Source: Escherichia coli (GTDB lineage: Bacteria; Pseudomonadota; Gammaproteobacteria; Enterobacterales; Enterobacteriaceae). Taken from it: 64,000 nucleotides of DNA. Shown here one piece after another: positions 43,548 to 47,710 of the stretch. The DNA is taken from the NCBI RefSeq assembly GCF_024223415.1, contig NZ_CP100500.1, one strand, 5' to 3'. A model generated the notes under the pieces. That model had not been told where the DNA came from. It searched no databases and saw only the letters and a list, made by a program, of their open reading frames with translations. Position 1 is the stretch's first letter. Each line of letters opens with the position of its first letter. The translations under genes were made by a program, and so were the position numbers.

Positions 43548-43720
43548 GGTGAGCCGGACGTAAGAGTGTACTGACTCCAAAAAGTTGGACAGTTGTAGTT
43601 GAGCACAAAATCAGGACTCCGGGATAACCTGTTTCCACTTTTCTTCATGTAGCCAAGGCGGTAAACCATCGTTGTTCGTGTGAGGTCGATAAACGTTATA
43701 ATAACCATTAATCCACTGGT

Positions 43721-44013
43721 TTATATCGCGTACCGCATGGCTAAAATCACCATACCACCTTTCGGAAACCATTCACTTTTAAGGCTGCGAAAGACTCTTT
43801 CCATCGGCGAATTATCCAGGCAATTCCCTCTGCGTCTCATACTTTGCATTACCCCATAACGCCAGAGTAACTTTCTGTATTTATTGCTTTTATACTGAAC
43901 ACCCAGATCTGAATGAAACAGCTGGTGGCCATCACGCGGTCGCGTTTCCCGTGCATTACGCAAAGCCCTACACACCAACTCAGCATCAGCGGTTAATGAG
44001 AGGGCTGAACCGT
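43721..44013 (-). pseudogene. IS3-family OrfB C-terminal fragment (distal to the IS66 insertion)
   Basis: ...[82 protein letters not shown]... Confidence 0.7.
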
Positions 44014-44048
44014 AAGCGTACAGCGAGGGCCGTATTGACGGGGATGTG

Positions 44049-45587
44049 TTATTCAGCTGGCAGTGCTATGCGCCACGGAAGCAGTTCGCTGACCCGGTTG
44101 ACCGGCCAGTCTGCTATGACGCCAAGCACATGGCGAAGGTAGCTTTCTGGATCCACGTCATTCAGTTTGCACGTCCCTATCAGGCTGTACAGTAGCGCTC
44201 CCCGCTCACCACCATGGCCAGAGCCGAAGAACAGGAAGTTTTTACGACCCAGACTTACCGCCCGCAGGGCATTTTCAGCGATGTTGTTGTCGATTTCCAC
44301 CCAGCCATCGTTCGCATAGTACGTCAGTGCCGGCCACTGGTTAAGTGCGTACGCGAACGCCTTCGCCAACTCTGAGTGTCGCGACAGGGTCTTCATCTTT
44401 TCACGCAACCAGCTTTCCAGGGATTTCAACAGCGGTTTCGTTTTTCGCTGACGTTCAGCAAGCCGCTGCTCTGCCGGCATTCCCCTTATATCCGCCTCTA
44501 TGGCGTACAACTGACCGATCTGCTCCAGGGCTTCTTCCGTCAGTGCTGACGGGATGCGGACGTGCACATCGTGGATCTTTCGGCGGGCATGAGCCCAGCA
44601 GGCAGCTTCCGTTATCCCACCATTGCGATACAGCTCGTTGAACCCGGCGTACGCATCCGCTTGCAGCACACCGCTGAAGCAAGCAAGATGAGTCTGCGGA
44701 TGGATGCCTTTTCTGTCCGGGCTGTAAGCGAACCACACTGCAGGTGCCAACGCTGACCCGGCATTGCGGTCATCACGAACATACGCCCACAACCGCCCGG
44801 TCTTCGTCTTCTTATTACCCGGCATCAGTACCTGGACCGGGGTATCATCGGCATGGAGTTTGCCGTCAGTCATGACATAGCCATGAAGCGCCTCTTCCAG
44901 CGGAGACAGCAGCCGGCAGCATGCATCCACCCAGCCCGACAGCAGTGAACGGCTCAGCTCCACACCTTGCCGGCCGTATATTTCTGACTGGCGATACAGC
45001 GGGGTGTGCTCTGCATACTTCGAGGTCAGCACGCGGGCCAGCAGCCCCGGTCCGGCGATACCCCGCTCGATGGGCCGCGAAGGTGCAGGTGCCTGCACGA
45101 TGGCATCGCACTGAGTACAGGCATGTTTTTCCCGTACCGTCCGGATAACCCGGAAGGCGCTACGCATCAACTCCAGCTGTTCGGCGGTATCCTCGCCCAG
45201 ATAGCTCAGTGAACCGCCGCAGTTCGGGCAGCACGGCGCCGCAGGCAACAGTCGCTTTTCGTCACGGGGTAGTGATTCAGGGAACGGCTTACGGATGCGG
45301 GTCTGACGCAACGGACGCTGTACTGCCGGGTCATACACCCTACCAGTCAGCGTATCGCTCTCTTTCTGAAGCTGGTTCAGATCGGCTTCCATTTGTGCGA
45401 TACGGCGGGAGACTTTTTCGGAACGACTGCCGAAGTTCATCCGGCGGAGTTTATCCAGCTGCGCCTGCAGATGGTCTATTTCGCGCTCCCGGTTGCTCAG
45501 CTTTTCCTGCAGGGCGTGGATCAGCGCTTCCTGTTCGGCCAGGCGCTGTTTCAGCAGGAAGATGTCGTCAGAAGAGATGTCGTTCAT
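44049..45587 (-). CDS. tnpC: IS66-family transposase TnpC
   Basis: 512 aa, intact; contains ...[24 protein letters not shown]... Confidence 0.93.
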
Positions 45588-45636
45588 AAGCCCGTATTTT
45601 ACCGGGCTTATTCTGTGACAACCAGGATAAAGAGAT

Positions 45637-45984
45637 TTACAGCATGGTCAGGGAGGTCAGCAGCCGCTTAGGCTGTCGCCAGTCGATACCTTCCAGCAGC
45701 ATCGCCAGCTGCGCCTGTGTAAGGAACACTTTGCCATCACGGGCTGACGGCCAGGCGAAGCGCCCACGCTCCAGCCGTTTGGTCAGGAGGCACAGTCCGT
45801 CACCGGTGGACCACAGCAGTTTAACCTGACTGCCGCTGCGGCCCCGGAAAATGAAAACATGGCCGGACATGGGATCGTCTTTCAGCGCCGTCTGTACTTT
45901 CGCAGCCAGGCCGTTGAAGCCATTTCTCATATCGGTGATACCGGCAACCAGCCAAATTTTGGTCCCGGAAGGTAAAGGGATCAT
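45637..45984 (-). CDS. tnpB: IS66-family TnpB
   Basis: 115 aa [26 protein letters not shown]... Confidence 0.92.
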
Positions 45985-46382
45985 CGCTTCAGTTCCTGTA
46001 TCAGCAGAGTCAGGAGCTTTTCGCTGACATTGCCATTGAAGCGGAGCGTCCCGTGCCGGAACGTTACCTCACAGCTGATACTGAGGGTTTCCGGGTCCTC
46101 TGCGAGCGATTCTGGCTGTTCGGCAGCTGCATCGAGAGTCACAGGAAGTAGCTGGGGGCTCTCTGAAGAAGGTAATAGCAGCTTTCCCTCGCGCCATTGT
46201 TGTCGCCATTTGAACAACAGATTGGCGTTAATGCCATTTTCAAGAGCAAGTTTTGAGATGGATATCCCGGGTTCACAGGAGGCAGCAACGAGCTGCTGTT
46301 TAAATTCGGGAGGATAATTAGGGCAGCCTTTTCGCCTGCCGGGAGTCACATTTTTCTGCATATCTGACACTTTGGTTCCCAC
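45981..46382 (-). CDS. IS66-family TnpA (Orf1)
   Basis: 133 aa with HTH ...PEFKQQLVAASCEPGISISKLALENGINANLLFKWRQQW... Confidence 0.88.
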   Translation of the reverse strand: MGTKVSDMQKNVTPGRRKGCPNYPPEFKQQLVAASCEPGISISKLALENGINANLLFKWRQQWREGKLLLPSSESPQLLPVTLDAAAEQPESLAEDPETLSISCEVTFRHGTLRFNGNVSEKLLTLLIQELKR

Positions 46383-46461
46383 TACTTATTTGGTGGACAC
46401 CACTTTGTCTAATTCGTCAGATTCTGACCAGACGGTTCAGGCTGTACGCTTACGCTGAACC

Positions 46462-47227
46462 GATAATCCGCCGTGAATATAAATCAACAACGAGTGCGAG
46501 ATAACACCATTTGTCCTGCAGGCGAATAAAACTGATGTTGCCGCACCAGACGCGGTTTGGTGCGGCGGGGTGAAATTGCCGGTTCAGTAAATTTGGCAAT
46601 GGCGGACTTTTGTCTTCGTTTACCCGGTAGTGATGTTTAACTGGCTGTCGACTTGTCAGCCCGCATTCCCGCATCAGTCGTCGTGCCAGCCACCGGCCTG
46701 CATCAACGCCACTATGGCGCAACATCTGACTGATTGCCCGGCTACCGACTGCGCCACGACTGAGAGCATGGACAGCCCTCACCCGACTTCGTAATTCAAT
46801 TCTTTGCACATTAACAGGACGCTTCACCTGCGCGTAATAAATGCTACGGTGAATACCGAATAAATGACAAAGAACCCGCACTGGCCACTTTGCTTTCAGC
46901 TGTGTGATTAGCGCGACAGTTTCCCCGGGGATTTCGCTCATCAGCACGGCAGCCTGCTTTAGTATTTCTTTTTCCATCTCAGGGCGCTTTATCTGCGCTT
47001 TAAGCTGCTTAATTTAGCGTTGTTCAGGAGTAATAGCATTACCAGCGGGCTCAATACCCTGAAGTTCCTGCTTATACAACCGTATCTATTTACGCAAATG
47101 GTCAGGGTTGAGCTCGAGTGCCAGCGCGACTTCTCTGACATCACGCTGGTATTTAACCACCTGTTCGATAGCTTCAAGCTTGAACTCCGGGGAAAAGGTA
47201 CGTTTAGTCCGACGAGTTTTGATCATG
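46462..47227 (-). pseudogene. IS3-family OrfA and OrfB N-terminal part (proximal to the IS66 insertion)
   Basis: OrfA MIKTRRTKRTFSPEFKLEAIEQV...; OrfB ...RRLMRECGLTSRQPVKHHYRV...PNRVWCGNISFIRLQDKWCYLALVVDLYSRRIIGSA ending at the duplication. Confidence 0.7.
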
Positions 47228-47334
47228 CATCACCTCATTTTCACTTTTTAACATTAACAGTGAAAATGAGGTGTCCTGAATTACCGATCCACTACACAGA
47301 GAGTGACCAAAGGATAACGTGTCCTGAGTTTCCC

Positions 47335-47710
47335 TATTATAGAGAACTGTTCAGGGAGGCTGACATCAAGAGTGCAGTAGCCTTTTTAATATTTCATTCT
47401 CCATTTCAATGCGTTGTAGCTTTTTCCTCAGCTCACGTATTTCGATTTGTTCTGGTGTCATCGGAGAGGCTTTTAGTGTTTTGCCCTGACGCTCATCACG
47501 CAGTTGTTTGACCCATCTTGTCATTGTGGAAAGGCCGATATCCATAGCTTTGGCGGCATCTGCCACCGTATAGTTCTGGTCAACAACCAGTTGGGCGGAT
47601 TAGCGTTTAAACTCTGCGCTAAAATTTCTTTTTTTCATTAGGGCACCAGTCTTGTTCTGAGGTGAGCATATCACCTCTGTTCAGGTGACCAAATTCAGTG
47701 TGCCATTTCA
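47335..47710 (-). mobile_element. IS911 left-end fragment (IRL plus orfA with nonsense codon)
   Basis: Reverse strand matches the IS911 IRL and orfA as recalled (TGAAATGGCACACTGAATTTGG...; [52 protein letters not shown]...); similarity ends at about 47335. Confidence 0.8.

Follow-up and report, generated by a model that had tools for sequence, protein, structure and literature searches.

Introduction

Insertion sequences of the IS66 family reportedly end in imperfect terminal inverted repeats that begin GTAAGCG. For naming purposes, the ISfinder rule treats copies sharing at least 95% nucleotide identity as isoforms of one element. The ISEc8 ORFs L0013, L0014 and L0015 of E. coli O157:H7 are 133, 115 and 512 aa long, respectively, and plasmid pEntH10407 is described as having one region with several insertions of ISEc8 and ISEc8-like elements (PMC2762410).

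We analysed a stretch of 64,000 nucleotides from Escherichia coli (NZ_CP100500.1; hereafter the window), in which the chromosomal interval separating an S6-peptidase autotransporter gene from phoX contains several nested insertion sequences. A preliminary description, made from the sequence of the window, had reported at this position an IS66-family element, intact and bordered by an 8-bp duplication, lying inside an IS3-family orfB and next to an IS911 fragment. We identify the intact element as ISEc8 and the interrupted one as an isoform of ISKpn37, and consider it very probable that ISEc8 transposed once, in place, into an ISKpn37-type orfB that was already there and already inactivated. 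This is a known element and an ordinary mobile-element event; the insertion site of the window copy alone is new, being unseen in 5426 complete E. coli genomes.

Results

Identity and boundaries of ISEc8

ISEc8 occupies positions 44012–46453 (minus strand; 2442 bp) and is complete, matching copies annotated as 'IS66-like element ISEc8 family' in many E. coli genomes with 100% identity and 100% coverage. The name is assigned by proxy, with PGAP-labelled ISEc8-family copies serving as the reference in place of the ISfinder entry. The three consecutive genes, each on the minus strand, are all intact: tnpC (44049–45587), encoding a DDE transposase of 512 aa with leucine zipper and zinc finger, matches the DDE_Tnp_IS66, LZ_Tnp_IS66, zf-IS66 and DDE_Tnp_IS66_C domains as well as NF033517 (457 bits; cut-off 180); tnpB (45637–45984; 115 aa) matches TnpB_IS66 (131 bits) and NF033819; and tnpA (45981–46382; 133 aa from a GTG start) matches HTH_Tnp_1 and NF047595, the IS66-like accessory protein TnpA. 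The PGAP version of tnpA has a different start, giving 126 aa.

The inverted repeat starts with GTAAGCGTACAGC at both ends of the element; the two repeats are identical at 13 of 13 positions, and at approximately 21 of 28 over a longer stretch. The GTAAGCG start is also found in other IS66-family elements of the window and of the loci compared. In ORF sizes, GTAAGCG repeats, 8-bp duplication and length, the window copy is the same as ISEc8 known from elsewhere, with no differences in the element itself. Judged from its sequence, this copy is structurally competent and has probably been active recently.

The 8-bp sequence GCTGAACC directly abuts ISEc8 on both sides, at 44004–44011 and 46454–46461, the plus strand reading GAGG-GCTGAACC/GTAAGCGTACAGCGAGG...GGCTGTACGCTTAC/GCTGAACC-GATAATCC, where slashes mark the element boundaries. 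These boundaries are independent of the repeat, being set by the 100% identity of all 2442 bp to full-length ISEc8 copies; the misplaced ends that the preliminary description had named as a potential refutation are not found, and its intact element with an 8-bp duplication stands. Nine distinct ISEc8 sites have perfect 8-bp duplications, with the same ends and unrelated duplicated sequences, whilst the copies that have none are recognisable recombinants with swapped flanks (for example L040 and L020/L021); ISEc8 as a rule generates 8-bp duplications. Coincidence, with no true duplication, can draw on the fact that GCTGAACC occurs five times on the plus strand of the window, and otherwise has only general possibility in its favour. 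Set against this are the independently fixed boundaries, a probability of approximately 1.5e-5 that two fixed positions share an 8-mer by chance, and the empty sites and frame restoration described below, so that we regard a chance repeat as negligibly probable.

The interrupted ISKpn37 isoform

Homology to ISKpn37 extends on both sides of ISEc8, and the insertion lies inside an IS3-family orfB, as first described. The 3′ part of the host element (43594–44011, minus strand) contains the C-terminal region of orfB and the right inverted repeat (reverse complement, ...CTCAACTACA); the 5′ part (46462–47296, minus strand) contains the left inverted repeat (reverse complement, TGTAGTGGATCGG...), orfA and the N-terminal region of orfB. 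Across the span of 43594–47296, the host is 96.9% identical over 1253 bp to ISKpn37 on the K. pneumoniae plasmid pNB5_NDM, with which it shares the ends TGTAGTGG...CCACTACA and the orfA/orfB organisation. Its 5′ part is 97.1% identical over 835 bp to elements annotated as 'IS3-like element ISKpn37 family transposase', and the orthologous fragment in AR_0085 is likewise labelled ISKpn37 by PGAP. Profile matches were obtained for HTH_Tnp_1 (orfA), for rve, rve_3 and HTH_21 (orfB), and for NF033516 (IS3 family; 287 bits). The two reading frames stand in a −1 frame relation and the ends are of the TG...CA type; all coding features are degraded.

Unlike ISKpn37, the host copy is dead, bearing five lesions in addition to the ISEc8 insertion: two in-frame stops in orfA (near 47087 and 47015), a +1 indel (+G at 46926), a frameshift in orfB through a 1-nt deletion near 43754, and replacement of the catalytic Asp by Asn at orfB residue 147. 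All five lesions are also present in relatives without the window's ISEc8, and this comparison indicates that the host was already dead before ISEc8 arrived.

In Klebsiella, ISKpn37 has GGC on both flanks, whereas no 3-bp duplication surrounds the window copy, the flanks of which are CTG and ACT. A left boundary moved by one base would give CAG on each side, but such a boundary has no support from the alignment to the reference and we attribute the match to chance. The lack of a 3-bp duplication around the host means that rearrangement has affected the older layers of the nest, which can be put in order only in part. The missing duplication bears on the flank history of this copy, not on the kind of element that it is.

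Excision and empty sites

The in silico excision and re-translation suggested in the preliminary description were carried out. Removal of ISEc8 together with one copy of GCTGAACC joins ...RRIIGSA to LSLTADAEL... in frame, whereas removal of ISEc8 alone, leaving both copies, breaks the frame. The insertion point is located after orfB residue 175, in the integrase-core region, past the first catalytic position and before the second. The earlier claim that excision restores OrfB holds for the frame across the site; the protein itself remains broken by the five further inactivating lesions, with the rejoined frame still ending early through the separate 1-nt deletion near 43754.

A single, uninterrupted GCTGAACC is present in intact ISKpn37, in the E. 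coli paralogues L006 and L007, and in the orthologous chromosomal loci of PK8275, AR_0085 and GF60. The position of the left junction is reached by GF60 only, and there the host sequence runs on uninterrupted. No fully uninterrupted orthologous ISKpn37 was found in the collection; each orthologue is broken elsewhere, with the window's site intact. The rejoining of orfB and the single GCTGAACC at empty sites indicate that the ISEc8 insertion is younger than the element that it interrupts, in agreement with the order first proposed. From the 100% identity of ISEc8, the perfect duplication and the absence of the junction elsewhere, the event looks like a recent simple transposition, as had also been suggested.

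Uniqueness of the junction and alternative histories

Complete E. coli genomes were queried with a 308-bp junction sequence, and the exact ISEc8/ISKpn37 junction was found in 0 of 5426; a junction 34-mer, GGCTGTACGCTTACGCTGAACCGATAATCCGCCG, is absent from GTDB species representatives and metagenome contigs. The insertion thus appears lineage-specific, as judged by its absence from the sampled genomes. Two APEC plasmids, pAPEC-O1-ColBM and pGF60-A, carry ISEc8 beside an 'IS3 family transposase', at a different site and with the duplication CCTAAGAC.

These searches also bear on whether the nested block originated at another site, such as a plasmid, and was brought to this locus by homologous recombination or horizontal transfer. 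ISKpn37-like paralogues, frequent in E. coli on plasmids as well as chromosomes, would offer homologous substrates for such an import. However, they are only approximately 95% identical and lack the five lesions, whereas both host halves in the window bear the locus-specific lesions of the orthologous loci, and the junction occurs nowhere else among the genomes, species representatives and contigs searched. Import of the block is accordingly highly improbable, and insertion of ISEc8 in place is the preferred reading.

In a locus type represented by PK8275, the dead orfB at this chromosomal position likewise contains ISEc8, although inverted, 34–148 bp away and without a duplication. The shared host and locus could suggest a single insertion behind both this type and the window, with a local inversion or short-range hop converting one arrangement into the other. 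The PK8275 type, however, lacks 114 bp (43864–43977) that are kept in the window and therefore is not its ancestor; it has a single intact GCTGAACC, such that derivation from the window would require precise excision, a new insertion and a deletion; and 8 positions distinguish its ISEc8 copy from that of the window. A simpler explanation is that the two loci acquired ISEc8 independently and that adjacent DNA was deleted in the PK8275 type; we give interconversion very little credence.

Recurrent IS66-family insertions

In different E. coli lineages, ends of IS66-family elements at this locus are located at window-equivalent positions 43806, 43863/43978, 44011 (the window itself) and 44019 (GF60); the duplication of the GF60 insertion, CGATAATC, directly adjoins GCTGAACC. 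A further locus type has an IS2 at 43897 that has itself been hit by two IS66-family elements 1 bp apart. Of the dispensable DNA, roughly 2.4 kb in length, all these insertions occupy a stretch of approximately 215 bp. That the 3′ half of the dead ISKpn37 orfB is a preferred regional target for IS66-family elements, as opposed to a neutral dumping ground, nonetheless seems unlikely to us. As a candidate for repeat-like targeting we considered the 8-mer CTGAACCG, which the target shares with the tnpA-proximal inverted repeat. When 5000 random 52-mers were drawn from the window as a control, a match of this type arose with P of approximately 0.08; the other eight duplicated ISEc8 sites showed no pattern, and we judge the match to be due to chance.

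Flanking debris and other IS66-family elements

The preliminary description began the nest at 43567, taking that position for the end of the IS3-family host; the host starts at 43594, where homology to ISKpn37 and its paralogues begins. The preceding 27 bp (43567–43593; TGTACTGACTCCAAAAAGTTGGACAGT) match IS150-family ends and represent an IS150-type terminal inverted-repeat remnant: in thousands of E. coli genomes, annotated IS150-family elements have ends approximately 96% identical to positions 43567–43594, and the rest of the element is absent from the window's nest, leaving a terminal remnant of 27–28 bp alone. Because this remnant is separate, the number of insertion sequences involved rises from three to at least four.

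On the other side, an IS911-like 5′ fragment (47297–47710, minus strand) ends where the ISKpn37 copy starts, only its first 414 bp being present. The left inverted repeat and orfA region of IS911 are recognisable in it (HTH_Tnp_1 match), although its orfA contains a stop codon. It is 93–95% identical to IS3-family copies in E. coli, and shows 95.3% identity with the 5′ piece of an IS30-split element on plasmid NZ_OZ501624, in which the fragment across the IS30 is annotated as IS911 family. The adjoining fragment is thus of IS911 type, as first described, but 'IS911-like' is the safer name since 93–95% lies at or below the usual isoform cut-off. A small ORF (47685–47894) has no Pfam match and a weak NCBIfam match to the C-terminus of IS110-family transposases.

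Two other IS66-family elements in the window, which had been taken as further copies lacking a clean duplication, are different elements from ISEc8, with 64–72% nucleotide identity to it. The one ending at 8484 has a frameshifted tnpC and indeed shows no duplication; for the one at 1–2008 a duplication cannot be judged because the element runs off the window edge.

Discussion

We propose that a single transposition of an active ISEc8, equipped with tnpA, tnpB and tnpC, interrupted the integrase-core region of orfB, where staggered cleavage of the target followed by gap repair would have duplicated the 8 bp of GCTGAACC. ISKpn37 would have inserted first and decayed through its five lesions before the lineages split, ISEc8 then entering one lineage only, presumably without phenotypic consequence. 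ISEc8 would have undergone no rearrangement since, which would be why both copies of the duplication and both host halves are still in place.

The locus provides a textbook-clean example of how relative ages can be read from nested insertion sequences. The ISEc8/ISKpn37 junction is a lineage-specific marker that could be used to type the strain, and a competent ISEc8 is of relevance to genome plasticity around the neighbouring serine-protease autotransporter gene. The recurrence of IS66-family insertions in one short stretch is the sole aspect that may merit a systematic look. In the E. coli IS graveyards of genomic islands and virulence plasmids, younger elements likewise lie inside dead older ones, and the nest in the window is essentially the same.

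A complete ISEc8 element flanked by an 8-bp duplication

The inserted element occupies 44012–46453 (2442 bp, with its ORFs on the minus strand) and is abutted on both sides by the 8-bp direct repeat GCTGAACC (44004–44011 and 46454–46461); the plus strand reads, in order, GGTTAATGAGAGG, GCTGAACC, the insert from GTAAGCGTACAGCGAGGGCC to CAGGCTGTACGCTTAC, a second GCTGAACC, and GATAATCCGCC. The termini of the insert are inverted repeats (13/13 positions identical; approximately 21/28 over a longer stretch), and three intact ORFs lie between them on the minus strand: tnpA (46382–45981; 133 aa), tnpB (45984–45637; 115 aa), and tnpC (45587–44049; 512 aa). 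Their products match the IS66-family TnpA, TnpB and DDE transposase models of Pfam and NCBIfam well above the cut-offs, and their lengths equal those listed for the ISEc8 ORFs L0013, L0014 and L0015 (PMC2762410). Full-length copies annotated as 'IS66-like element ISEc8 family' are 100% identical to the insert with 100% coverage over 2442 bp; near-full-length matches are present in 3334 of 5426 complete E. coli genomes.

The preliminary description placed the duplication at the true ends of the element, and we considered the alternative that misplaced boundaries had produced it. Since the ISEc8 identity fixes the boundaries, the flanking repeat is not an artefact of boundary choice, and an identical 8-mer at two fixed positions is expected by chance with a probability of approximately 1.5e-5. 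Among all complete ISEc8 copies within the loci fetched from other genomes for comparison, perfect 8-bp duplications, unrelated to each other in sequence, occur at 9 distinct insertion sites; several copies lacking a duplication (L040, L020/L021) are evident recombinants of two ISEc8 copies, as their swapped flanks reveal. A clean duplication therefore identifies a simple insertion free of later rearrangement.

The host element and its neighbours

The ISKpn37-like IS3-family host lies on the minus strand at 43594–47296, with ends TGTAGTGG...CCACTACA. Its boundaries were set by alignment to two E. coli paralogues and to the intact 'IS3-like element ISKpn37 family transposase' element of the K. 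pneumoniae plasmid pNB5_NDM, which shift the left end from the 43567 initially proposed. With ISEc8 excised, the host measures 1253 bp and shares 96.9% identity with ISKpn37. GGC on each side of the Klebsiella copy confirms the ISKpn37 ends. In the window, CTG and ACT flank the host, which thus lacks a target duplication. The 27 bp at 43567–43593 are an orphan IS150 terminal inverted repeat (approximately 96% identity, thousands of genomes), a remnant separate from the host and lying against the ISKpn37 end, with the remainder of IS150 missing.

On the other side, 47297–47710 retains an IS911-like element only as far as its first 414 bp, which cover the left end and an orfA interrupted by a stop codon; identity is 93–95% to E. 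coli copies and 95.3% to the 5′ portion of an IS30-interrupted plasmid element, whose portion beyond IS30 carries an IS911 family annotation. Just past it, a short plus-strand ORF (47712–47894) gave no match in a Pfam search and matches the IS110-family transposase model NF033542 weakly (E = 3e-4), over its last ~40 positions; the ORF is a possible fifth remnant in the insertion-sequence stack.

Order of events

In silico excision of ISEc8 with one repeat copy rejoins OrfB (...DLYSRRIIGSA) to its downstream part in a single frame; excision of ISEc8 only shifts the frame, and stops are met immediately. In the reconstructed OrfB, ISEc8 interrupts the rve domain after residue 175, with the first catalytic position (147) before it and the second (207) beyond. 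The empty site GAGGGCTGAACCGATAATCC, with one GCTGAACC only, is present in intact ISKpn37, in the E. coli paralogues L006 and L007, and at the orthologous chromosomal locus of the related strains PK8275, AR_0085 and GF60.

Apart from the ISEc8 insertion, the host differs from ISKpn37 by five lesions: two stop codons in orfA (TGG to TAG and GAA to TAA), an additional G at 46926, an Asp to Asn change at the first catalytic residue, and a 1-nt deletion near 43754. The last cuts the restored OrfB short, so that the expected restoration holds for the frame across the insertion site but not for the full OrfB. The extra G, in the orfA/orfB overlap, resembles a permanent −1 frameshift that would join OrfA and OrfB in one frame, although it is without effect in the window because orfA has two stops.

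All five lesions recur as identical 26-mers in orthologous loci without the window's ISEc8, and none is present in the paralogues or in ISKpn37 itself. The host element was thus dead before ISEc8 arrived. Because relatives lacking the insert share every lesion, ISKpn37 insertion was followed by decay, then by the lineage split, and finally by ISEc8 insertion in the window's lineage, in agreement with the original proposal that the IS66-family element arrived after the IS3 element. The ISEc8 insertion destroyed no functional gene.

With a 308-bp query across the right ISEc8/host junction, no place with at least 80% coverage was found in the 5426 complete E. coli genomes, and the 34-mer junction was not found in GTDB species representatives or metagenome contigs. 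Position 44011, at the left junction, is covered by GF60 alone, whose host sequence runs on uninterrupted there. The absence of the junction from these collections, the 100% ISEc8 identity, and the 99.8–99.9% identity of the flanks to strains without the insert support an apparently recent, lineage-specific event; together with the clean duplication they bear out the recent simple transposition first suggested.

The locus in related strains

The interval between an S6-peptidase autotransporter gene (39669–43493, plus strand) and phoX (48317–50296) accumulates insertion sequences, and relatives fall into four types. In the PK8275 type (~10 genomes), an ISEc8 of opposite orientation lies between window-equivalent positions 43863 and 43978; it differs from the window copy at 8 positions and shows no duplication, and 114 bp are missing; the best explanation is an independent insertion and then an adjacent deletion. 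The AR_0085 type (9 genomes) has another IS66-family end at 43806 and a 128-kb rearrangement that splits the locus; in AR_0085 itself (L008/L009, NZ_CP029741) the two sides lie ~128 kb apart in opposite orientation, which suggests that IS66-family elements mediated a large inversion. In the GPEC1040 type (5–6 genomes), an IS2 at 43897 has been hit by ISEc8 (duplication TTTTTAGA) and by an ISEc8-like element, 1 bp apart; in GPEC1040 itself (L002, 6916–9445) both lie within the first 73–74 bp of IS2, with a single base C between their ends. GF60 carries an ISCro1-like element whose duplication, CGATAATC, immediately adjoins the window's target GCTGAACC.

In the orthologous loci of these other lineages (L001, L002, L008/L009, L046), different IS66-family insertions, and in one type the IS2, fall into the same ~215 bp of the inactive ISKpn37 orfB. 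For five events falling in ~215 bp of a ~2.4-kb dispensable interval, the nominal P is ~3e-4, a post hoc value from a query spanning part of the interval and from events that are possibly not independent. The stretch (43806–44019) may attract insertions as a hot spot or tolerate them as a neutral sink, and regional targeting by IS66-family elements is an unproven possibility.

The autotransporter (1274 aa) has an ESPR signal peptide, a Peptidase_S6 domain and an autotransporter barrel, and its gene ends 74 bp from the insertion-sequence stack. It is found mostly in chromosomes of poultry-associated E. coli, and at the nucleotide level it is only 89–95% identical to a homologue carried on a plasmid (L003).

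Other insertion sequences in the window

The two further IS66-family elements share 64–72% nucleotide identity with ISEc8 and are distinct insertion sequences. The first (1–2008, plus strand) shares 98% identity with an annotated ISEc23-family element; the window start cuts it, so that only one of the two flanks needed to judge a duplication lies in the window. The second (plus strand; left end 5730 or 5679, right end 8484) shows no duplication: neither GACTAAAT nor CCTAATAC, the flanks for the two possible left ends, matches GAACAATG. A frameshift divides its tnpC into two parts (6850–7809 and 7834–8454). The element is an ISEc8-like/ISCro1-like mosaic, and a 51-bp orphan IS66-type end (5679–5729) stands before it. 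The contrast drawn between the ISEc8 insert and these two copies holds only in part. An IS2 copy at ~15770–17095 (minus strand; end TAGACTGGCCCCCTG at 17095) encodes a 301-aa OrfB and what we take to be the IS2 OrfA; the product of the adjoining gene (17821–18732, minus strand; 303 aa) contains an HNH_2 endonuclease domain (E = 6.5e-9).

The nested structure is confirmed, and its original interpretation holds in essence; what changes is where the host ends, how many elements there are and what they are called, how far OrfB is restored, and what the other IS66-family elements are. The insert is a known insertion sequence showing known behaviour.
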